The notes under the pieces are model-generated. The model was given only the letters and a program-made list of their open reading frames with translations. It did no database searches and had not been told where the DNA came from. The position numbers and the translations under genes are program-made. Of a stretch of DNA of 64,000 nt, positions 18,180 to 27,263 are shown in pieces. The stretch is taken from positions 1,280,001 to 1,344,000 of the forward strand of contig CAVPPB010000003.1 of NCBI GenBank assembly GCA_963707215.1, in the 5' to 3' direction. Within the stretch, counting starts at the first letter, position 1. Every line of letters starts with the position of its first letter. The DNA is from an uncultured Chloroflexia bacterium (GTDB taxonomy: Bacteria > Chloroflexota > Limnocylindria > Limnocylindrales > CSP1-4).

Positions 18180-19016
18180 ATGCCGTTCATCCCACGCGAG
18201 GAGATCCTCCGCCGCCTCCGCTCGCAGATCGAGGCGGGCGTGCCGATCGTCGGCTGCGGCGCCGGCACCGGGATCTCGGCCAAGATGGCCGAGGCCGGCG
18301 GCGCCGACATGGCGATCGTCTACAACAGCGGCCGCTACCGGATGGCCGGCCGCGGGTCGCTCGCCGGCATGCTCCCCTACGGCGATGCCAACGCGATCGT
18401 CGTCGAGATGGCCGCCGAGGTCCTCCCCGTCGTCCGCGACATGCCGGTCCTCGCCGGGGTCAACGGCACCGACCCGTTCCGGATCATGCCGGTCTTCCTC
18501 CGCCAGCTGCGGGACCTCGGCTTCGATGGCGTCCAGAACTTCCCGACAGTGGGGCTCATCGACGGCGACTTCCGCCGGAATCTCGAGGCGACCGGCATGG
18601 GCTACGACCTCGAGGTCGCCGCGATCCGGGCCGCCCACGAGCTCGACCTGTTCACCTCGCCGTACGTGTTCGACCCCGACCAGGCGGCCGAGATGGCGAG
18701 GGCGGGCGCCGACCAGCTCGTCGCCCACATCGGGCTGACGACCGCGGGGACGATCGGCGCGGGGGTGGCGCTCACCCTCGACGAGGCGATCGAGCGGGTC
18801 ATGGCGATCGCCGAGGCCGGACGAGCGGTCCGTGGCGACATCATCGTCCTCTGCCACGGCGGGCCGCTCGACGAGCCGGACCAAGTCGGCGAGGCGCTGG
18901 CGCGGATGCCCGGCGTCCACGGCTTCTTCGGCGCCTCGAGCATCGAGCGGCTGCCGACGGAACGGGGCATCAGGGGCCAGGTCGAGGACTTCAAGCGCCT
19001 GGCGATCGCGCGGTAG
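18180..19016 (+). CDS. Phosphoenolpyruvate hydrolase-like TIM-barrel protein
   Basis: [32 protein letters not shown] and [12 protein letters not shown] motifs. Confidence 0.9.
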
Positions 19017-19041
19017 GTCGCGCCAAGACCCGGCCGGCGAG

Positions 19042-19118
19042 TGGTCGGGGTGGTGGGATTCGAACCCACGACCTCGTGCTCCCAAAGCACGTGCGCTACC
19101 AGGCTGCGCTACACCCCG
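19042..19118 (-). tRNA. tRNA-Pro (anticodon TGG)
   Basis: 77-nt cloverleaf CGGGGTG...CGTGC-TT-TGG-GA-GCACG...GTTCGAATC...CACCCCG-A-CCA. Confidence 0.97.
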
Positions 19119-19300
19119 CCGGTTCCGTGCTCACGAATACCACAGAACTCGTGCCCACGACCGGCCGCGGCGTCAGACCAGAGGCCGAGGGCCTGGTCGG
19201 CCTGCTGTCGCCCCGGTTCGTCCGATCCACGTCCTCGGCAGGGCAGCTCCTGCCGGATCCGCACGAGGGGAGGTGGTCGCGAACCCCGCCCCGCGGAATC

Positions 19301-19780
19301 CTAGATGCCTCCTGAGGCCGGGACGATCACCTCCTCCTCGCCCGTCCGAACGGGCTCCCTGGCCGCCGCCGAGTGGGCTGCCGTCAAGATCGACTTGGCG
19401 ACCCCGACCTGCACGCTGGCCCCGCTTGCGAGGGTGCTGGACGCCCGCAGGAGGTGGAGGGCCGCGTCGAGGTTCACCTGGCCGCTTGACGCAAGACCGT
19501 CGGAGGTGGACCCCGTATGCCGTTGGACCACGCCGCTGCCGGGCGTCGCGGACGGGGCAGCGGTCTGCGGCTCACGTTGCGCCAGCATCTGCAGGATCGC
19601 CCGATTGCCGGCCGTCCGCTGCAGGTGCTCGATCGTCGCGGGCGTTGCGACGGGCGGCGCGTTGACGGGCGAGCCCGGGGGCAACGAGGTTGCTCGTTCT
19701 CGTTCGACGGGTCGCTTCGTTCTGGCCGCGGTCTGCCGCTGGTCGCCCGTGGGTCCGGCGTGGTCATGTGCTTCTGTCAT
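19301..19780 (-). CDS. Hypothetical protein with LQRTAGNRA / VVQR motifs (eCIS/DUF4157-associated N-terminal signature)
   Basis: ATG at 19780 with GGAGG RBS; motifs visible in the translation. Confidence 0.6.
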   Translation of the reverse strand: MTEAHDHAGPTGDQRQTAARTKRPVERERATSLPPGSPVNAPPVATPATIEHLQRTAGNRAILQMLAQREPQTAAPSATPGSGVVQRHTGSTSDGLASSGQVNLDAALHLLRASSTLASGASVQVGVAKSILTAAHSAAAREPVRTGEEEVIVPASGGI

Positions 19781-19822
19781 CGCGACCTCCGCGAGGCGGG
19801 AGCGACGCGAAACCTGGCAGGT

Positions 19823-19885
19823 CCCGCGCTGCATCGGTCAGGGTGCCGGCCGGAGAACGCCCGAGGCAAGAGGCTTGGGGGCTCA
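19823..19885. repeat. Dispersed 63-bp element, copy 1 (copy 2 at 20473-20535)
   Basis: Ungapped match, 43/63 by eye, including identical CGGTCAGGGTGCCGG. Confidence 0.65.
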
Positions 19886-19937
19886 TGGAGGCGGGATCGG
19901 CCCTTTCGGGCAACTGACGCCTCGATCCCCTGGGGGG

Positions 19938-20381
19938 CTAGGCGTGCGCCGGAACCGTCGCCTCGGCGAGGGCCTTGAAGTCGGCCAGGATCTTGCGATG
20001 GTTCCGCTCGATCCAGCTCGAGCTCACGACCCGCTTGACGAAGCCCGGAAGCTTGGCCGGGAGCTCGTAGTCGGACTCCAAGACGAAGCGGGTCGCCTCG
20101 CCGTCGGACTCGCAGCGGAAGTAGTTCTCCATCGGTCCCGGTTCCATGTGATCGTGGTACAGCCGCAGCGGCTCGAACTCGACGATCGTGACCGTCCACT
20201 TCTGCTCGAAGCCCATCACCCGCGCCGTCTGGACGAACGTCGTCCCGACCTCGTCGATCGGGCCGCTGAACTCAGCGAACTGCACGTGCATCCAGTCTTC
20301 CCAGCGCGATGTGTCCGAGAAGCGCGCCCAGACGTGCTCGACGGGTGCCTCGATCCGGATCTCGTCACGGAAGTGCATCAC
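19938..20381 (-). CDS. SRPBCC (START/polyketide cyclase) family protein
   Basis: IRIEAPVEHVW...W start and an amphipathic C-terminal helix LADFKALAE. Confidence 0.85.
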   Translation of the reverse strand: MMHFRDEIRIEAPVEHVWARFSDTSRWEDWMHVQFAEFSGPIDEVGTTFVQTARVMGFEQKWTVTIVEFEPLRLYHDHMEPGPMENYFRCESDGEATRFVLESDYELPAKLPGFVKRVVSSSWIERNHRKILADFKALAEATVPAHA

Positions 20382-20560
20382 GGCCTACCCCCTTGATCGG
20401 TGCACCAAGTCTGCCCGTGGCTCGGCGCGGTCCGATGCGGCGGCCGTGGGCACGAACCGAGCGTCAGCGGCCCCCGCGCCATGGCGGTCAGGGTGCCGGT
20501 CATGGAACGTACGGGTCTAGAGGACGAGGGCCTGAACGGTCGCGGCCCCGTCGTCGATCA

Positions 20561-20720
20561 TGCTCGCGAACCGAAGGATGATCGGGGCCTTCACCGCTCC
20601 GTGGTCCGTGCTCAGCTCGGCACTGGGCCGCTCCCGCCGCAGCGGCTCCGAAGCACGTCCGCTACCAGGCTGCGCTCCACCCCGCCCGGTTCGCGCTCAC
20701 GAACTCCACATGACTTGCGA
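20561..20720. repeat. tRNA-Pro 5'-half repeat B with shared flanks
   Basis: 20645-20720 aligns to 19078-19153 (tRNA 5' half plus upstream flank); 20561-20693 aligns to 25454-25589. Confidence 0.85.
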
Positions 20721-20809
20721 GCGGACCGTTTCGGCCTGCAGCGCTCGAACACGCGCTATGGTGCTCGCGCGCAAGGCCGACCCCATCGGAACTCGCCGGG
20801 AAAGGACTC

Positions 20810-23563
20810 GTGAAGCAGGAGCTCGATCGCCGGCTCGTTGCGGTGGCCTTCACCGACATGGTCGGCTACTCCACGCTGATCCAGGCGGACGAGCGCCTGG
20901 CCGTCGACAAGCGCGACCGGTACTGGCGCGCGGTCGACCGTCAGCACCGGGCCTTCGGCGGGACGATCGTGCAGCGACTCGGCGATGGCAGCATGAGCAT
21001 GTTCCCGAGCGCGCTCGCGGCCGTCCAGGCCGCAGTCGAGATCCAGCGTGGGCTCGCCGCCGAGGACGTCCCGGTGCGCATCGGCATCCACGTGGGCGAG
21101 GTGACGGTCGAGCGAGAGCGGCTCACCGGTGAGGCGGTGAACATCGCCTCCAGGATCGAGTCCTTCGCGGTGCCCGGCGGGGTGATGCTGTCGGACACCG
21201 CGTACGACCACCTCAGGAACCGGACGGATGTGGCCGTCGTCAGCCTGGGACGGTTCAGGCTCAAGAACGTCGGTCGTCCCCTGGAGCTCTTCGCCCTCGC
21301 CGATGACGGCATCGTCGTGCCGGATCCGCGGGTGCTCGAGGGCAAGGGCGAGCGGTTCGCGAGCCTGCCGAGCCACCTCCCCGACCCGGTCGGACCATTG
21401 CTCGGTCGCGCCGCCGACCTCGAGGCGCTCGTCGCGCTGGTCCGAGAGCATCGGGTGGTCACGATTACCGGCCCGGGCGGCGTCGGGAAGACCCGCTTCA
21501 TGGTCGAGCTCGGCCGGGTGCTCGCCCCGGACTTCCTGGACGGTGTCGCATTCATCCCGCTGGCCGACGTCCTCGAGGCCGATGCCTTGGTCCCAGCTCT
21601 CGCCGCTGCGCTGGACGTGAAGGAGGCCGAGGAACGGACGCTGGGCGACGGAGTCATCTCGCTGATCGGTGACAAGAAGGCGCTCCTGCTCCTAGACAAC
21701 CTCGAGCAGATCGTGGCGGCTGCTCCGGAGGTCGCCCGGCTGGTGGCGGCCTGCCCGGGCCTGCGGATCGTCGTCACCAGCAGGACCCTGCTGCGGATCT
21801 CGGCTGAGCGGGAGTTCCCGCTTGCACCGCTCGCGCTCCCGACCTCGTCCGACCCGGGTCCGTCCGCGTCGCTCCTCGATTACCCGGCCGTCGCGCTGTT
21901 CGTCGAGCGGGCCCGCGCCTCGAAGGGCAGCTTCGAGCTCACGCCGGAGAACGCGCGTGCGGTGACCGAGGTGTGCCGTCGCCTGGACGGTCTTCCCCTT
22001 GCGCTCGAGCTCGCTGCCGCGCGGCTTCGGATCCTGTCACCCGAGGCGCTCCTGGAGCGGCTCGACAGAGCCCTGAACGTCCTGACCTCCGGTCCCCGCG
22101 ACATCGCCGAACGACACCAGACCCTGCGTGCCACCATCGACTGGAGCCACGCGCTGCTGATCGATCCGGAGCAGCGTCTCTTCCGGCGGATGGCCGTGTT
22201 CGTCGGGGGTTGCACCCTCGAGGATGTCGAGGCGGTCTGCTCCGAGCCGGGCGAGACCAGCCTCGAAGAGCTGGAGTCGCTCGTCGACAAGGCGCTCGTA
22301 CAGGCGGCCGGCCAGGACGACAGGTTCCGGATGCTCCAGACGATCGGCGAGTATGCCCATGAGCGCCTCGAGGACTCCAGCGAGGCCGATACGATCGCGC
22401 TGCGGCATGCCCGACGGTATGCCGCGCTGGGGCGTGGCATCCGGGATGGCATCGAGGGCATCGACCAGGTCGGCGCCGTCGAACGCGGGATCATGGAGGA
22501 GGGCAATCTCCAGGCCGCGCTGGACACGCTCCTGGCGTCCGCGAAGCTGGGGGACACGATCGCACTCGAGCAGGGTCTGCAGCTGACCGGCGACCTGTGG
22601 ATGTACTGGCACATCCGCGGCAAGAACCTCAGCTCGAAGGAGTACGCGACCGCCTTTCTCGATCTCGATCCTGAGGGTGCTCCCACCGTCGGGCGCGCGG
22701 GCGCCCTGATGACGGTGGGCCTCGCATCCTGGATCTCCGGGCAGTCCGCGCGAGCGGCCGACGAGTGGGGCGAGGCGTATCGCATCGCCGCGGAGCTCGA
22801 TGCCGGGCGCGAGCTGTGCCTCACCGCGTTCTGCCGGGCCCTCGCGGTGCTCGGGTCCGACGTCGACCTTGGGCTCGCGCTGTCGCAGGAGAGCGCCGAG
22901 CGATCCGGAGCGCTCGGGTTCACCTGGGCTCACTCGTGGGCCTTGACCTTCGAGGGGATGCTCCACGCGGTGTCGGGCGATCTCGATGCGGCAACGGCGA
23001 GGTACGCCGACGCGCTGGCGATCCAGCAGCGACTCGGCGACCACGAGGGGGCAGGCATGTCGATCGGCGGCCTTGCCGGATCAGCCGCCGCTCGTGGCGA
23101 CCTGGTCGCCGCCATCGACCTGTACGGCCGGTCGCTCGCGGCATTCGAGACGATCGGCGACCGTGGCGAGGAAGCCAGGATCCTGTCCGAGATCGCCTGG
23201 GCGCATCTCCGGAACGACGACCCGGAGCTGGCACGCAGCTATTTCTTCAAGGCTGCCCAGGCACATACCGACGTGGCCAGCGTCCGTGGAGTAGGGCTGT
23301 CCCTGATCGGGCTGGCGGCCACGGAAGCGGTCGAGCTCCGACCCGAGCGCGCCGTGCAGATCGCGGCGGCGGCCGAGGTCCATGCCGCGCAGGAGGGCAT
23401 CGTCGTGGTCTACTCCGACGAGAACCCGGGTCGTGCGTTCGTCGAGCAGGCACGCGCATCGCTGTCGGACGCGGACGTCGCCCGGGCCACGGAGATCGGC
23501 CGCCGGCTCACGATCAAGCAGGCCCTCGACCTCGCCAGGAGGGCCGATCCGGCTCCTGACTAG
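20810..23563 (+). CDS. Class III nucleotidyl cyclase + STAND (NB-ARC-like) NTPase + TPR protein
   Basis: FTDMVGYS, GDG, RIGIHVG, VNIASRI; Walker A GPGGVGKT, LLLDNLEQ, LDGLPLALELAAAR; helical repeats. Confidence 0.9.
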   Translation: MKQELDRRLVAVAFTDMVGYSTLIQADERLAVDKRDRYWRAVDRQHRAFGGTIVQRLGDGSMSMFPSALAAVQAAVEIQRGLAAEDVPVRIGIHVGEVTVERERLTGEAVNIASRIESFAVPGGVMLSDTAYDHLRNRTDVAVVSLGRFRLKNVGRPLELFALADDGIVVPDPRVLEGKGERFASLPSHLPDPVGPLLGRAADLEALVALVREHRVVTITGPGGVGKTRFMVELGRVLAPDFLDGVAFIPLADVLEADALVPALAAALDVKEAEERTLGDGVISLIGDKKALLLLDNLEQIVAAAPEVARLVAACPGLRIVVTSRTLLRISAEREFPLAPLALPTSSDPGPSASLLDYPAVALFVERARASKGSFELTPENARAVTEVCRRLDGLPLALELAAARLRILSPEALLERLDRALNVLTSGPRDIAERHQTLRATIDWSHALLIDPEQRLFRRMAVFVGGCTLEDVEAVCSEPGETSLEELESLVDKALVQAAGQDDRFRMLQTIGEYAHERLEDSSEADTIALRHARRYAALGRGIRDGIEGIDQVGAVERGIMEEGNLQAALDTLLASAKLGDTIALEQGLQLTGDLWMYWHIRGKNLSSKEYATAFLDLDPEGAPTVGRAGALMTVGLASWISGQSARAADEWGEAYRIAAELDAGRELCLTAFCRALAVLGSDVDLGLALSQESAERSGALGFTWAHSWALTFEGMLHAVSGDLDAATARYADALAIQQRLGDHEGAGMSIGGLAGSAAARGDLVAAIDLYGRSLAAFETIGDRGEEARILSEIAWAHLRNDDPELARSYFFKAAQAHTDVASVRGVGLSLIGLAATEAVELRPERAVQIAAAAEVHAAQEGIVVVYSDENPGRAFVEQARASLSDADVARATEIGRRLTIKQALDLARRADPAPD

Positions 23564-23824
23564 ACCTGGATCGCAGCCGATCGGTCGCGCCTGATGCTGC
23601 GCGTCATCGCATCTCCGGTCCCTGGTCGCTCCAGGTCGAGGATGGTCAACCCCCCTTCCGTCTACAGTGATGACCGCTTGTGACCCGGAGCAGAGGCGCC
23701 CGACGCGGTCGGTCGTCGCGGGGCGAGATCGACCCGGGGGAGTGGGCCCGGGCCGCCTCGGTTGAAGACTGCCGTCCGCGCCACCTCGGAGAGCACCGCG
23801 AGCAGTCACTGAAGGAGGATCTCC

Positions 23825-25021
23825 GTGGACACGAACCCGGTCATCGAGATGCTTGGCCGTCCGCTGCGCCTCGCCGTGATCGGCGGTGGCCCGGGCAGCT
23901 TCATCGGTGCGATGCACCGAACGGCCGCACGACTCGATGGTCGCTATGAGATCGCGGCCGGGGTGGTCTCGTCCGATCCCGAGCGATCCCAGGAGGCGGC
24001 CGCCGGAATGGGGATCGATCCCTCCCGCGCCTATGCCGATGCGATCGGGATGCTCGACGCGGAGAGCGAGCGCGAGGACGGTGCCGAGGTCGTCGCCATC
24101 ATGACCCCCAACGACAGCCATCATCGGTATGCCCTGGCAGCCCTGGGTCGTGGCTTCGACGTCATCTGCGAGAAGCCCATGACGAACACGCTTGACGAGG
24201 CCCTGGACATCGTTCGGAAGGTCGACGCCACCGGGCTGGTCTTCTGCCTCACGCACAACTACACCGGATACCCGATGGTGCGCCAGGCTCGCGCGCTCGT
24301 TGAGGATGGGCAGGTCGGTGAGATCAGGCTGGTCCAGGTCGAGTACGTACAGGGAGGCAAGGCCGACGAGTCCGACCCTGATCCGGTCGACGGGTTGCCC
24401 TGGCGCTATCACCCCGTGCGAGGCGGACCGTCGCTCGTGATGGGCGACATCGGAACGCACGCCCACAACCTGGTGCGATTCGTGAGCGGTCTCGAAATCA
24501 CGGAAGTCGCCGCTGAGATCGGGCACGTGATCCCGGAACGGCCTGTCGACGACTACGGCGCCGCCATGTTGCGCTTCGACAACGATGCGCGCGGGACCTT
24601 CTGGGTCACACAGACCGCCGCTGGGGTGGAGAACAGTCTCTGGATCCGAGTGTCTGGCACGAAGGGCAGCCTGGAGTGGCATCAGGAACGGCCGACGCGG
24701 CTCACCTTCAAGCCGCTCGAAGGACCTGTTCGCGTGTACACGCCGAATGGGCCCGGGGCTCTGCCAACTTCGGCCCGAGCGTGCCGGATCGTCGCCGGGC
24801 ACCCGGAGGGATTCCATGAAGCCTTCGCCAACATCTACTCGGACGCTGCCGAGGTGATCGCCGCGCGGCGCACGGGCCGGGAGCCCGATCCGCAGGCGCT
24901 GCAGTTCCCGAACGAACGCGACGGCGCGGTCGGGGTGAAGTTCGTCGAGGCGGCGGTCGCGTCGAGCGACGCCAACGGTATCTGGACGGACGCCAAGCTC
25001 TTGCTCGAGGAGAAGTCGTGA
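23825..25021 (+). CDS. Gfo/Idh/MocA oxidoreductase (sugar dehydrogenase-like)
   Basis: GGGPGSFIG, CEKP, HNYTGYPMV, DIGTH and GHPEG motifs. Confidence 0.9.
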   Translation: MDTNPVIEMLGRPLRLAVIGGGPGSFIGAMHRTAARLDGRYEIAAGVVSSDPERSQEAAAGMGIDPSRAYADAIGMLDAESEREDGAEVVAIMTPNDSHHRYALAALGRGFDVICEKPMTNTLDEALDIVRKVDATGLVFCLTHNYTGYPMVRQARALVEDGQVGEIRLVQVEYVQGGKADESDPDPVDGLPWRYHPVRGGPSLVMGDIGTHAHNLVRFVSGLEITEVAAEIGHVIPERPVDDYGAAMLRFDNDARGTFWVTQTAAGVENSLWIRVSGTKGSLEWHQERPTRLTFKPLEGPVRVYTPNGPGALPTSARACRIVAGHPEGFHEAFANIYSDAAEVIAARRTGREPDPQALQFPNERDGAVGVKFVEAAVASSDANGIWTDAKLLLEEKS

Positions 25022-25437
25022 TGCCTGAACGCAGGGAGATCGGACATGCAGAGGCTCGTGGCCTCGTCGCCATGATCATGGACCGACTCGAGGCCAACGG
25101 AGAAGGTGCCGCGGTGGCCGTCGTCGACCCTCACGGCGAGCTCGTCGCGTTCCTCCGCACCGATGGCTGTGGATTGGCGTCGATCAACATCGCGATCCAC
25201 AAGGCGTTCACGGCGGCTCGCGAGCGTGTCGAATCCAGCGTCCTCGGAGAGCGGTCCCGAACGGAGGGCTTCCCCATCACCAACTTCGGGGACCCACGGT
25301 ACGTGGGATGGGGAGGTGGGGTCCCGATCACCGTGGGCGATGTCGTGATCGGAGCCGTCGGGGTGAGCGGCCTGCCAGAAGCCGCCGACATCGAACTGGC
25401 CCGTTGGGCGGCCGCGAGTCTCGCCGCCGCCCGTTGA
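25021..25437 (+). CDS. GlcG/HbpS family heme-binding protein
   Basis: VAVVDPHG, KAFTA and GGVPI...IGAVGVSG motifs. Confidence 0.88.
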   Translation: MPERREIGHAEARGLVAMIMDRLEANGEGAAVAVVDPHGELVAFLRTDGCGLASINIAIHKAFTAARERVESSVLGERSRTEGFPITNFGDPRYVGWGGGVPITVGDVVIGAVGVSGLPEAADIELARWAAASLAAAR

Positions 25438-25453
25438 CCTGAGCCCGACGCCC

Positions 25454-25589
25454 TGCTCGCGAACCGCTCGATGTCCGGCGCCTTCGCCACTCGACCGGTC
25501 CTGCTCGGGACCCCCGACGCTACGCCGCTCCCGCCCCGGCAGCTCCAAGGCACCTGCGCCACCAGGCTGCGCCACCCCCGATCGGTTCG
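25454..25589. repeat. tRNA-Pro 5'-half repeat C with a left flank shared with repeat B
   Basis: gctccaaggcacctgcgccaccaggctgcgccacccccg at 25542-25580; TGCTCGCGAACCG and GCCGCTCCCGCC shared with 20561 and 20627. Confidence 0.8.
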
Positions 25590-25640
25590 GCCGATCGTCG
25601 CCATGGCCGGAAGGGCCCTCGACGCCTGGCCGGTCGGCGT

Positions 25641-26929
25641 CTACCGCGTGGCGCTGCCGGCCGCCCCCGCGCGGGAGCGAGGCACCGTATCCGGCCCATC
25701 GGACGACTCCGATGCCTTCGCTCGGCTCCGCTGGGCAAGGCGGGCCAGCGCGGTCCCCAGGCGCGCCGCCCGGGCCGTGGCCTCGGGAGTGGCGGGCCCG
25801 GCGACGATGCCTGTCGCCTTGAGGGCCGCGACTTCGTCCGCCGGGAACCCGGCGGACGCGAGGACGTCGAGCGTGTCCTCACCGAGACCGGGCGCGCCCC
25901 GACCATCGCCATCCCCGGCCGCTGCCCGAAGTGGGGTGACGACGTGCATGCCAGCGCCCTCGCCGACGATGAGGCCGCGGGCTCGGACGTGCGGGTCGAG
26001 CTCGACCTCCGCCGGCGTGTTCACGGGTACCACGCAGGCGTCGTCCCCGAGCTCGGCCAGCCAATCGGCGCCAGTTCGCGACCCGAAGATGCCGGCCAGC
26101 TCTGCGATGGCGGACGGGTCGAACTGCCGCGGCACGAGATCCTCGCGCTCGATGGCCCGGCAGAAGGCCACCCAGAACTGCGGCTCCAGGGCGCCCAGGG
26201 CCAGCCAGCGGCCGTCCGAGGCGGCGTAGACGCCGTAGCAGGGGTAGGCGCCGGCAAGCGGACCGGGCGCGGAGCCGGCGGTCTCCAGCCCGGCGCCGAG
26301 CGGGCCGAGCCAGGCCACGATCGCGTCGAGGACCGCGACATCGAGCACGGCACCCTCCCCCGTACGTTCGCGTCGGAAGAGCGCGCTGACGATCTCGAGC
26401 GCAGCGAGCGTCCCTCCGGCCAGGTCCGCGATCTGCAGGCCGGGCGGGACGGGCCGGATCCCGGCCGAGCCCAGGACCGACAGCACGCCGCCGACGGCCA
26501 GGTAGTCGAGATCGTGGCCGGGCCGGTCACGGTAGGGGCCTTCCTGCCCGTAGCCGGTCAGGGCGCAGTAGACGACGTCCGGGTTGACCTCGAGGACGTC
26601 GTCGGGCCCGAGCCCCCGGCGCTCCAGCTGGCCAGGCAGGGACGACCCGAGGAAGACGTCGGCGTCCCGGGCCAGGCGCAGCACCACGTCGCGGCCACGG
26701 GGCAAACGGTAGTTGACCGCGATGCTCCGCTTGCCGCGGTTGACGGCCTCGAAGAAGCCACCGAACCCGAGCTCGGGGGAGCGATCCGGGCGTAGTCCCC
26801 GGCGAGCGGGGTCTCGACCTTGATGACTTCGGCCCCGAGATCCGCCAGCAGCAGGGAACACCACGGTCCCGGGAGCAGCCGGGACAGGTCCAGCACTCGG
26901 ATCCCATCGAGCGGTCGGCCGAGCGACAC
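25641..26929 (-). CDS. CaiB/BaiF family CoA transferase, -1 frameshift in a C-run at about 26775-26779
   Basis: [17 protein letters not shown]...[11 protein letters not shown] in one frame; NRGKRS, GYGQEGP and GHDLDY in another. Confidence 0.88.
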
Positions 26930-27263
26930 CTGCGGTCCCCCTCGACGGAATCGTGCTCCACTCATGTCCGGTCGCCAGTGCCGGATGGCCCGGCGGGTCG
27001 TGCGCGCAACACGGGCGACCCATGGGTCGTCTGAGGGGCCGACGCCGGGTGGTCGTTGGCAGGCTGAGGGACCGCCCGGCGTCTCCACGTCTCGTGCGAC
27101 GCGGGCGCCACGGCATCCGCCCCCTGGCTGGAACCGGACCTTCGGGCGCACGGGCTCGGCTTCCCCGTCCCCGGACGGCCTGCTATCCTCGTGCCGCCTG
27201 TGCCCGGCAGACGCGGTCGCCCCAGCGGCCGTCGTTCCGCCGTACCGTCGACCTGGAGGGTCC

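Follow-up and report, generated by a model that had tools for sequence, protein, structure and literature searches.

Two integrase-less islets stacked at the 5' half of tRNA-Pro(TGG) in a Limnocylindria-type Chloroflexota genome: a probable legacy of a site-specific element family

We have found a stack of two integrase-less islets at the 5' half of a tRNA-Pro(TGG) gene. The region is probably a tandem array of integrative islets left by a site-specific element family of Limnocylindria-type Chloroflexota. The anatomy of the array, its family, the link to an integrase and the order of decay are demonstrated by the comparisons given here. As to how the islets arrived, the chances are about equal that they had an integrase of their own, later deleted, and that they were installed by the integrase of a helper. 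Within the window (the whole stretch of DNA analyzed, 64,000 nucleotides) the array has the following parts.

19042-19118, minus strand: intact tRNA-Pro(TGG) (ARAGORN; Rfam tRNA model, 71 bits, threshold 29)
about 19080-19118, minus strand: copy A, the 5' half of the intact tRNA-Pro(TGG)
19119-19160, minus strand: P' arm of the proximal islet, which is the tRNA-upstream flank (84% identity to the flank of copy B)
19301-19834, minus strand: islet 2 cargo, a low-complexity ORF of 177 aa without family assignment (nothing in Pfam, NCBIfam or PADLOC)
19938-20381, minus strand: islet 2 cargo, an SRPBCC / Polyketide_cyc2 protein of 147 aa (Pfam PF10604, E 6e-16)
20561-20644, plus strand: conserved ~85-bp end (P arm) of islet 2 (repeat and BLAST matches)
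20645-20684, minus strand: copy B, a displaced tRNA-Pro 5' half (94% over 34 nt, E 4e-10)
20685-20775, minus strand: P' arm of the older islet 1 (aligned with 21 integrase-bearing and 19 integrase-less flanks)
20810-23563, plus strand: islet 1 cargo, a class III nucleotidyl cyclase - STAND NTPase - TPR protein of 917 aa (Pfam)
23825-25021, plus strand: islet 1 cargo, a Gfo/Idh/MocA oxidoreductase (Pfam)
25018-25437, plus strand: islet 1 cargo, an HbpS-like (GlcG-type) protein (Pfam PF03928, E 6e-30)
25454-25541, plus strand: conserved end (P arm) of islet 1 (repeat, BLAST and relatives)
25542-25580, minus strand: copy C, the oldest and most decayed displaced tRNA-Pro 5' half (89% over 28 nt)

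The tRNA-Pro(TGG) gene is the sole tRNA that ARAGORN found in the window and the single copy of its kind in the genome. A sequence-only reading had reported two decayed copies of its 5' half, and these were recovered by repeat search, by BLAST and by a control on all tRNAs; the differences counted by eye were also about right (about 3 substitutions and 1 indel in B, about 4-5 and 2 in C). Copy B, whose loop is mutated, covers the tRNA from its 5' end to 2 nt past the anticodon loop. The repeat search of the window gave a family of three copies (19052-19116, 20618-20682 and 25515-25579, at spacings of 1566 and 4897), an A/B pair (19082-19149 versus 20648-20715, 84%) and a B/C pair (20561-20599 versus 25454-25492, 79%). 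In a BLAST of the B stretch 20540-20720 against the whole 3.26-Mb genome, the sole matches were C, at E 7.3e-15 (133 nt at 74%), and A, at E 2.5e-14 (63 nt at 86%); beyond these, no E was better than 0.02. With nhmmer, E was 1e-26 for B as for C. For the control, the 41-nt 5' and 3' halves of all 52 tRNAs were searched against the surrounding +/-30 kb. The only non-tRNA 5'-half copies near any of the 52 were the two of tRNA-Pro(TGG); among 3' halves, tRNA-Gly(CCC) had one exact copy and three tRNAs showed merely 16-nt matches to their own 3' ends (E 3.8e-4). Both fragments lie in tRNA orientation on the 5' side of the minus-strand gene, which fits the upstream rule of Islander for 5' fragments, and at every junction aligned the block of identity stops 2 nt beyond the anticodon loop, as for an anticodon-centered site. 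A reading of the inner 75-nt repeat as an RNA was rejected, since it lacked covariation support and Rfam matched the tRNA alone over 18900-25800.

The younger, tRNA-proximal islet (islet 2) spans about 19083-20648 (1566 bp, 1.57 kb) and the older islet (islet 1) about 20648-25545 (4897 bp, 4.9 kb). GC content is 0.65-0.70 in the islets versus 0.72-0.78 in the flanks, and about 71% in the genome. The P' arm of islet 2 aligns with the stretch between tRNA and integrase in relatives and holds the box TGCTCACGAAT at 19128-19138, a pattern with 3 exact matches in the window versus 0.06 expected. The P' arm of islet 1 keeps both family boxes (about 20693-20712 and 20734-20746), the second as an exact motif match at 20734; with one mismatch this second motif has 12 matches versus 7.0 expected, which is no enrichment. 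The boxes may be protein-binding sites. At the opposite end, the P arm of islet 2 opens with the box TGCTCGCGAAC and belongs to sequence model R1, to which 43 of the 151 family genomes have a nearly full-length match (counted by hand from the listed rows; the family tallies for R1 and for the integrase search include two unpublished genomes, G105 and G162, on which none of the specific conclusions depends). The flank common to A and B, earlier put at ~35 bp, is present at 84% identity; the flank that B has in common with other family members extends over about 95 nt, to ~20750. The common ~85-bp end of B and C was upheld by the repeat pair and the genome BLAST. The tRNA promoter presumably sits in the upstream flank 19119-19160. 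That each islet supplied a new promoter, as proposed earlier, is suggested by the geometry; a promoter scan detected no sigma-70-type promoter anywhere in 18950-25750.

Pfam identified no integrase, excisionase, replication or other mobility gene in either islet (19119-25541), so that the defining gene of the element is missing here; the earlier statement that neither islet encodes a recombinase was thus accurate. The arms of both islets align with those of integrase-bearing elements, and with cargo lacking an integrase between them they have the layout of cis-mobilizable elements. The cargo genes are on mixed strands, minus in islet 2 and plus in islet 1. Cargo homologous to the 917-aa cyclase-STAND-TPR protein was found in 6 other stacks. 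A defense role of the cargo was considered and rejected, as PADLOC gave weak cyclase/TPR matches for this protein (PycC, E 8e-6) and none for the other four.

The same end and half-tRNA delimit 5-24 kb elements in the same bacterial family (Ca. Limnocylindrales, Chloroflexota). These elements have a Xer-like tyrosine integrase on the strand opposite the tRNA, at a distance of 47-196 bp from its 5' end. All of the related genomes are metagenome bins and possibly chimeric. In G006, a divergent 337-aa integrase (PF00589 at 1e-28 plus a SAM-like N-domain) begins 47 bp past tRNA-Pro and is followed by a Replic_Relax gene, GC dips within the element, and the same end with half-tRNA recurs 24.2 kb away. 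Further both-ended elements are found in G021 (5.0 kb, again with integrase and Replic_Relax gene paired), G145 (8.9 kb), G093 (9.4 kb), G010 (10.2 kb) and G146 (14.8 kb), and G138 has a tRNA-proximal one of 4.8 kb with a broken integrase. A 3.3-kb element at locus L108 carries a rolling-circle Rep-like protein. No transfer gene was seen in the autonomous relatives. Autonomous elements with these ends and a tyrosine recombinase, which the sequence-only reading had named as a test, therefore exist.

Integrase loci were collected from public genomes (80 in total, 12 of them cut by a contig end). Among the 68 uncut loci, 59 have the tRNA on the opposite strand at 47-196 bp (the reversed layout), at Pro-TGG (39), Val-GAC (14), Ala-GGC (3), Gly-CCC (1), Gly-TCC (1) and Val-CAC (1); the tRNA is co-directional in 4 and lacking in 5. 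Among 22 tested loci that were either non-Pro or co-directional, three have an element bounded by perfect 40-41-nt repeats of tRNA positions 1-40/41, two at tRNA-Val and one at tRNA-Gly(CCC). Loci L097 and L161 are 95.7% identical over 11.2 kb from the tRNA onward, and 9.8 kb on the other side of the tRNA have no megablast match, a pattern that suggests mobility of the element family. The closest PDB matches of the integrase are XerD (9e-22), XerA (6e-20) and Gp33 (5vfz, 6e-10), and it has no recognizable arm-binding domain. A FastTree phylogeny was built for 56 of the 80 integrases, omitting 21 loci (contig-end cuts, truncated or broken integrases) and 3 with a frame below 250 aa. On this tree, arbitrarily rooted on a Streptomyces sequence and without support values, the Pro and Val clades are sisters, Ala and Gly(CCC) fall outside both, and distant branches mix reversed and usual layouts.

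In the mechanism that we propose, the attachment site of the circular form would comprise the conserved ~85-bp arm, a copy of tRNA nucleotides 1-40 and a ~100-bp arm (that is, the tRNA upstream flank), directly after which autonomous members have their Xer-like tyrosine integrase gene. Recombination by the integrase between this site and the chromosomal tRNA would take place within the anticodon stem-loop. The working gene would then consist of the element's 5' half and upstream flank joined to the resident 3' half, while the old 5' half and old upstream flank would be shifted to the far end of the element. Because a second insertion would repeat the displacement, the oldest fragment would come to lie outermost. 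The anatomy fits: A and B have a common upstream flank, B and C have the other arm in common, and outside C lies an unrelated flank followed by a CoA-transferase gene (25641-27116, minus strand). Copy A itself would have been supplied by the proximal islet. The model of two related elements inserted successively at the tRNA 5' half, each pushing the older half outward and leaving C the most decayed, holds in view of the conserved ends, the integrase-bearing relatives and the integrase-less stacks of other genomes.

In G067, replacement of the 5' half can be observed directly. Its resident half agrees with both displaced halves over positions 27 to 40, but departs from them at position 26 and in a compensating pair of the D stem; the exchange accordingly falls in the anticodon stem-loop, its exact position probably being within that stretch. 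With respect to the site before insertion, no empty site was found among the relatives compared, including G001, another species of the genus. The UPF0261/PEP-hydrolase/tRNA gene order is conserved in this genome (2.1 kb at 85% identity), where the tRNA is flanked by a box of the family and by an unrelated ORF of lipoprotein-like type. Such an element-type flank means that G001 is not an empty site; it provides the other expected observation, different cargo at the same type of junction.

The studied array is most likely an immobile fossil. The loops of B and C each have a substitution and a 1-nt deletion. In most of ten other stacks the displaced copies show at most 2 differences over ~38 tRNA positions, the exceptions being a truncated second copy in G032 and the displaced copies of G067, which have 3-4 differences from the resident half. 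No cognate family integrase was detected in the studied genome (G000, 85% complete), the best tblastn match being a Xer-type protein of 31% identity. The suggestion of trans-mobilization is tenable as a route of arrival, and improbable as a present activity, given the undetected integrase and the mutated B and C cores. Joints that skip an islet were sought in short assembled contigs of four out of 24 public runs, with no reliable one found. The contigs bridge junction C (25353-25683) with no differences and extend from within B into the STAND gene (20659-21034), while 19457-19807 has nearly no cover. Two contig joints would skip islet sequence (19013 to 20823 and 21524 to 26590); they are not trusted, since the shorter side is just 21 letters.

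At least nine other genomes, from several genera, contain integrase-less stacks, with one to five units per stack. Two-armed stacks are present in G032, G108, G067, G102, G121, G092, G091 and G007, and further ones stand behind the integrase elements of G021 and L108 (four more junctions in the latter). They carry a variety of cargo: ECF sigma with anti-sigma, Kelch, beta-lactamase family, CAAX protease, histidine kinase and unknowns. These stacks raise the alternative of a live, integron-like platform, on which two-armed integrase-less cassettes would be excised and inserted at the tRNA by the integrase of an incoming autonomous element acting in trans, and would have spread in this integrase-less form. 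In its favor, both arms are kept in integrase-less units, even tRNA-proximal ones, and the upstream arm ends at about one point, just before the expected integrase start. Only one of about two dozen mapped units, that of G007, has a backbone piece (a truncated 240-aa integrase), other backbone gene families being absent, and several arms from different genera have a common variant of the second box. Stacks also exist behind a resident integrase in L108 and G021. Against this, the family integrase is absent at E<=1e-20 in eight genomes (G000, G001, G030, G032, G067, G091, G102 and G121), and all copies in G092 and G108 have internal stops. An all-against-all comparison of the stack loci plus the 80 integrase loci revealed no integrase-less unit at least 78% identical over at least 400 bp in two backgrounds, and the STAND unit common to G102 and G121 has merely 67% nucleotide and 54% protein identity. 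A 0.46-kb unit of G032, which contains a 111-aa STAND gene fragment and whose ends have no tRNA half, seems to have decayed by deletion. Cargo genes point in both directions, and the integrase does not resemble IntI. In the studied window, the loop cores of B and C no longer agree with that of A, a difference expected to prevent exchange. We regard such a platform as unlikely, and give a similarly small chance to a tRNA-anchored cassette system in which short integrase-less units of cargo plus two conserved arms are captured and shuffled at the tRNA 5' half, in trans, by the Xer-like integrases of small integrative plasmids. If the latter were true, each capture would rewrite the front half and promoter of the tRNA, and the system would be a functional analogue of the integron built on a tRNA gene.

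Local duplication of the tRNA 5' region and its neighborhood by unequal crossing-over or slippage, with no site-specific recombinase, is very improbable. Direct repeats of gene fragments can arise in this manner, and the window contains no recombinase. However, the half-copies adjoin the conserved end known from 43 of 151 family genomes rather than local tRNA-adjacent DNA, the same ends bound integrase-bearing elements, and the copies enclose unrelated cargo, which means that nothing was duplicated. Chance similarity can practically be dismissed: short GC-rich motifs do recur at about 71% GC, as the degenerate second box illustrates, but the within-genome BLAST and nhmmer E-values, the 52-tRNA control and the excess of the exact box pattern all speak against it.

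Among known systems, the array of two integrase-less islets is closest to tRNA-gene islands with a 5' tDNA fragment, reportedly described by Zhao and Williams in 2002 as having a 'reversed target orientation'. The likenesses are a replaced 5' tRNA part with the displaced 5' fragment upstream, a site centered on the anticodon loop and a tyrosine integrase. Unlike in those islands, the habit here is that of a whole integrase clade, on four tRNA types in one bacterial class, with long conserved arms and stacks of up to five mostly integrase-less units. The rarity of 5' replacement, assumed by the sequence-only reading, agrees with Table 1 of Islander, which has 159 islands with a 5' fragment and 3760 with a 3' fragment among 3919, and a passage of PMC6563490 terms 5'-distal recombination 'considerably less frequent'. 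The Islander rules demand an integrase in every island, and integrase-less stacks such as these would go unreported. A literature search on integrases of Limnocylindria gave nothing on such elements, judged by title and abstract; the 5'-fragment list of Islander could hold relatives.

The CIMEs of ICESt1/ICESt3 (Streptococcus thermophilus) and the ssrA islands of Dehalococcoides likewise form tandem arrays at one RNA gene, in which attachment sites of an autonomous family flank units without integrase or transfer genes, but they target the 3' end (fda, ssrA) and not a tRNA 5' half. Mobilization has been demonstrated for the streptococcal case, while the islets described here are known from sequence. 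For Dehalococcoides, PMC3146451 reports 15 islands without an integration module and proposes a mobilizable reading for them. That system has a serine recombinase and a 20-bp repeat, whereas the family here uses a tyrosine integrase.

The likeness to integrons, proposed by the sequence-only reading, did not hold beyond topology: the recombinase gene of autonomous relatives reads away from the insertion point, and older units lie further out because new ones enter at the proximal position. The family integrase scores 55 bits against the integron-integrase model TIGR02249 (cut-off 265) and 22 bits against NF011946 (cut-off 435), and there is no IntI-type integrase in the window. Junctions are tRNA halves with attP-type arms of ~85 and ~100 bp, not attC hairpins, and the cargo is on both strands, often in several genes, with no common promoter. 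At the level of the integrase proteins alone, the same architecture, a SAM-like core-binding plus catalytic domain with no N-terminal arm-binding domain, is found in arm-less Xer-like actinophage integrases (35-37% identity, 37% being the best phage match), among them Streptomyces phage Kromp, Mycobacterium cluster phages and Gp33 (PDB 5vfz), which we take to be the 'directionless' Brujita integrase. Small integrative plasmids of the pSAM2 type in actinomycetes insert at the 3' end of tRNA-Pro. Like the autonomous relatives here, they pair an integrase with a replication gene; the present family uses the 5' side instead, with no transfer gene seen.

No component of this system is new in itself, since 5'-fragment islands, tandem accretion and integrase-less elements have each been described before. 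For the studied window alone the significance is modest, as the array is old and probably dead. In the wider lineage, which is abundant in soil and sediment but uncultured, an entire integrase clade inserts as a rule in the reversed layout, on the 5' side of tRNA genes, a layout usually treated as rare and exceptional. Such integration builds small accessory-gene arrays that integrase-based island finders would miss. An insertion exchanges half of an essential single-copy tRNA gene and presumably its promoter, so that element and host have to stay compatible, as illustrated by the compensating D-stem change of G067. The system thus offers a natural experiment on the extent to which a core gene can be rewritten by a mobile element.

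The only tRNA gene in the window is an intact tRNA-Pro(TGG) (Rfam score 71 bits), whose 5' half (copy A) has two displaced and decayed counterparts, B and C, on the 5' side of the tRNA and in the same orientation. UPF0261 and PEP_hydrolase genes lie to its left. The features of the locus are:

19042-19118, minus strand: tRNA-Pro(TGG)
19301-19834, minus strand: 177-aa low-complexity ORF, cargo of the younger, proximal islet
19815-19890, minus strand: copy of a conserved sequence of about 75 nt
proximal islet, minus strand: gene for an SRPBCC protein
20455-20545, minus strand: copy of the same sequence of about 75 nt
20561-20644: common sequence of about 85 bp (arm P) at B
20645-20684, minus strand: copy B, tRNA-Pro 5' half only
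older, distal islet, plus strand: genes for a 917-aa cyclase-STAND-TPR protein, a Gfo/Idh/MocA oxidoreductase and an HbpS-like protein
25454-25541: arm P at C
25542-25580, minus strand: copy C, tRNA-Pro 5' half only
25641-27116: family III CoA-transferase gene, beyond C

Copies A and B are spaced by 1566 bp, and B and C by 4897 bp. In B and C the match begins at the first tRNA base, runs through the anticodon loop and two bases further, and then ends, with arm P in place of the tRNA 3' half. The tRNA-upstream flank is common to A and B and is absent at C. When the whole 3.26-Mb genome was searched, the stretch at B matched only C (E 7e-15) and A (E 2.5e-14). As a control, both halves of all 52 tRNAs were searched within +/-30 kb. 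Apart from hits on other tRNA genes, and from three tRNAs whose 3' ends gave matches of 16 nt, half-tRNA fragments were found only at tRNA-Pro(TGG) and at one tRNA-Gly(CCC), the latter as a classical 3'-half copy. The two 5'-half copies with a common end, described in the sequence-only reading, were thus confirmed by both searches. The tRNA-Gly(CCC) gene lies outside the window (contig C1 of the same genome, 717584-717659), with an exact 41-nt 3'-half copy 4.7 kb downstream (722384-722424), and the pair looks like a classical 3'-side island. Another tRNA gene beyond the window, tRNA-Arg(TCG) (contig C2, 247650-247726), has its final 16 nt repeated, in unchanged orientation, at three downstream sites (239769-239784, 240856-240871 and 245284-245299; each E 3.8e-4), possibly a stack of islets of the 3'-end type.

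Gene annotation of both islets and their flanks revealed no recombinase of any kind, as the sequence-only reading had claimed for the islets. The GC content of the islets is 65-70%, against 72-78% in the flanks. The 177-aa ORF contains the stretch …LQRTAGNRAILQ…, which we presume to resemble the N-termini of DUF4157-type proteins; contigs from public runs give almost no cover at 19457-19807 and cover the DNA on both sides. The sequence of about 75 nt stands upstream of minus-strand cargo genes: two copies belong to the proximal islet and four to contigs of the genus's other species (L043 818-910, 1812-1900 and 3505-3600; L042 460-550). It had no match in Rfam and covariation gave no support for a fold; the cargo genes may share it as a promoter or operator. 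The CoA-transferase gene has counterparts of 78-81% DNA identity on the tRNA-Pro 3' side in two relatives, G092 (L080) and L171; in the window it lies instead past the stack, on the tRNA 5' side, reflecting either a rearrangement or a paralogue.

With a sequence model of the conserved end plus half-tRNA, 151 genomes of the same bacterial family were searched, all related genomes being metagenome bins. Among the matches listed (counts are from 150 listed rows), a near-full-length match occurs in at least 43 of the 151 genomes, often several in a row. Autonomous elements combining these ends with a tyrosine recombinase, which had been named beforehand as support for an insertion, are present in G006, G021 and other relatives. 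In G006, a divergent 337-aa tyrosine integrase 47 bp past the tRNA is followed by a Replic_Relax gene, an ECF sigma factor and low-GC DNA, and the far boundary (end plus half-tRNA) lies 24.2 kb away. Integrase elements with both ends are also found in G021 (5.0 kb), G145 (8.9 kb), G093 (9.4 kb), G010 (10.2 kb), G146 (14.8 kb) and G138 (4.8 kb, integrase broken); at five more loci the integrase adjoins the tRNA and a contig end cuts the element. Backbone genes differ among the elements (Replic_Relax; a rolling-circle Rep-like protein in a 3.3-kb element; DUF3631 with a YqaJ-like nuclease), and an MmeI-type restriction-modification gene occurs as cargo. Loci L097 and L161 share an element of more than 11 kb at 95.7% identity and have no megablast-level match in the DNA across the tRNA, as expected after recent transfer, a pattern that suggests recent horizontal spread.

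In the circular form of such an element, the attachment site would consist of arm P, tRNA positions 1-40 and arm P' (about 100 bp, also the tRNA-upstream flank), followed by the integrase gene. If such a circle inserted within the anticodon stem-loop, the order would become outer flank, old half, P, cargo, P' and a new half fused to the resident 3' half; insertion of another related element in the same way would produce the two-islet arrangement. The window matches this layout exactly, in that C joins a foreign outer flank to P, B joins the P' of the first element to the P of the second, and A carries the P' of the second. C is more decayed than B, in agreement with successive insertion, and this order and the arm layout uphold the earlier proposal that two related elements inserted one after the other. 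The genome G067 (L078, C1:1878000-1895000) displays the replacement directly: compared with both displaced halves, its working tRNA-Pro 5' half has a change at position 26 and a compensating pair of changes in the D stem, and it matches them exactly from 27 to 40, which places the exchange at those positions. Evidently, the element brought a different, internally consistent allele of the tRNA front half.

Arms P and P' are direct repeats of one another, and both are conserved from genus to genus. A box that starts with TGCTC(A/G)CGAA has three exact matches in the 64-kb window against 0.06 expected, all at predicted arm positions, and a second box has two, both in the arms of B, with no enrichment when one mismatch is allowed. 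These boxes may bind the integrase or a partner and would overlap the tRNA promoter; a scan of the locus for sigma-70-type promoters found none.

An alignment of 11 integrases used as query retrieved 80 loci from public genomes, 12 of them cut at the integrase. In 59 of the 80 the tRNA lies on the opposite strand, with 47-196 bp between the tRNA 5' end and the integrase match (Pro-TGG 39, Val-GAC 14, Ala-GGC 3, and Gly-CCC, Gly-TCC and Val-CAC 1 each). The usual, co-directional layout was seen in four, which are the most distant sequences (42-52% identity, one Streptomyces included), and no tRNA is nearby in five, among them the truncated integrase of G007, beside an internal junction. When the 22 non-Pro or co-directional loci were tested for tRNA 5'-half copies, an exact 40-41-nt copy of positions 1-40/41 was found at two tRNA-Val loci and one tRNA-Gly(CCC) locus (at 6.8, 9.8 and 2.5 kb), and the other 19 had none within the locus DNA examined. 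The layout counts and these half-copies indicate that the reversed layout is a property of the integrase clade, beyond one element. At locus L093 (G126:C3, 4323-5467 and 17484-17610), a tRNA-Val(GAC) element of the sister integrase clade has its far end 13 kb away, and the tRNA-Pro end model still recognizes that end (E 3e-4); the conserved arm is therefore older than the tRNA-target switch. The integrase is Xer-like and falls under every curated cut-off (XerC 155/335 bits, integron integrase 55/265 bits). Among solved structures it is closest to XerD, XerA and a phage Gp33, and its nearest phage and plasmid genes are 35-37% and 27-31% identical, respectively. The integrase gene has a small conserved ORF as its neighbor.

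Several relatives carry units of 0.46-4.9 kb that have both arms and lack an integrase. Five are stacked in G032 (the outer ones with partial ends), three in G108, two or more each in G067, G121 and G102, and one each in G092 and G091; G007 has one unit followed by the junction with the truncated integrase, and in G021 and L108 the stacks lie behind an integrase element. Their cargo is mixed, with cyclase-STAND genes in seven loci. The window islets may be deletion products that lost their own integrase, or units that travel without one, in trans, and we consider the two about equally probable. The truncated and broken integrases of G007 and G138, a 0.46-kb unit in G032 with a 111-aa gene fragment, eight stack-bearing genomes without the family integrase, and the lack of any unit common at high identity to different backgrounds argue for deletion. 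Travel in trans is favored by the regular end point of arm P', which is retained up to where the integrase gene would begin, by the near absence of backbone remnants, and by an arm variant common to several genera.

No family integrase was found in the assembly of this genome (85% complete, 5 contigs). In B and C alike, the seven-base loop, the predicted exchange site, has one substitution and has lost one base. Displaced copies in most of ten other stacks have at most two differences from their tRNA over about 38 positions, the exceptions being the truncated second copy of G032 and the displaced copies of G067. Cores are intact in integrase-less units of, for example, G108 and G121. Contigs of four public runs confirm junctions B and C and contain no reliable joint skipping an islet. 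The array in the window is most likely an old, immobile remnant.

The integron-like array suggested in the sequence-only reading is not borne out, as the integrase score, the junctions and the cassette orientation all fail to fit. The first island with a 5' tDNA fragment is reportedly that of Zhao and Williams (2002). Such islands are a known minority (159 of 3919 in Islander). Tandem arrays and integrase-less units between attachment sites are already described for Dehalococcoides ssrA islands (PMC3146451). Streptococcal elements are likewise known for both. A search of titles and abstracts for integrases in this lineage found nothing on such elements. What is new is the combination: the reversed habit, clade-wide and spanning four tRNA types, goes together with long repeated arms and with frequent stacks of small integrase-less units in an uncultured lineage.
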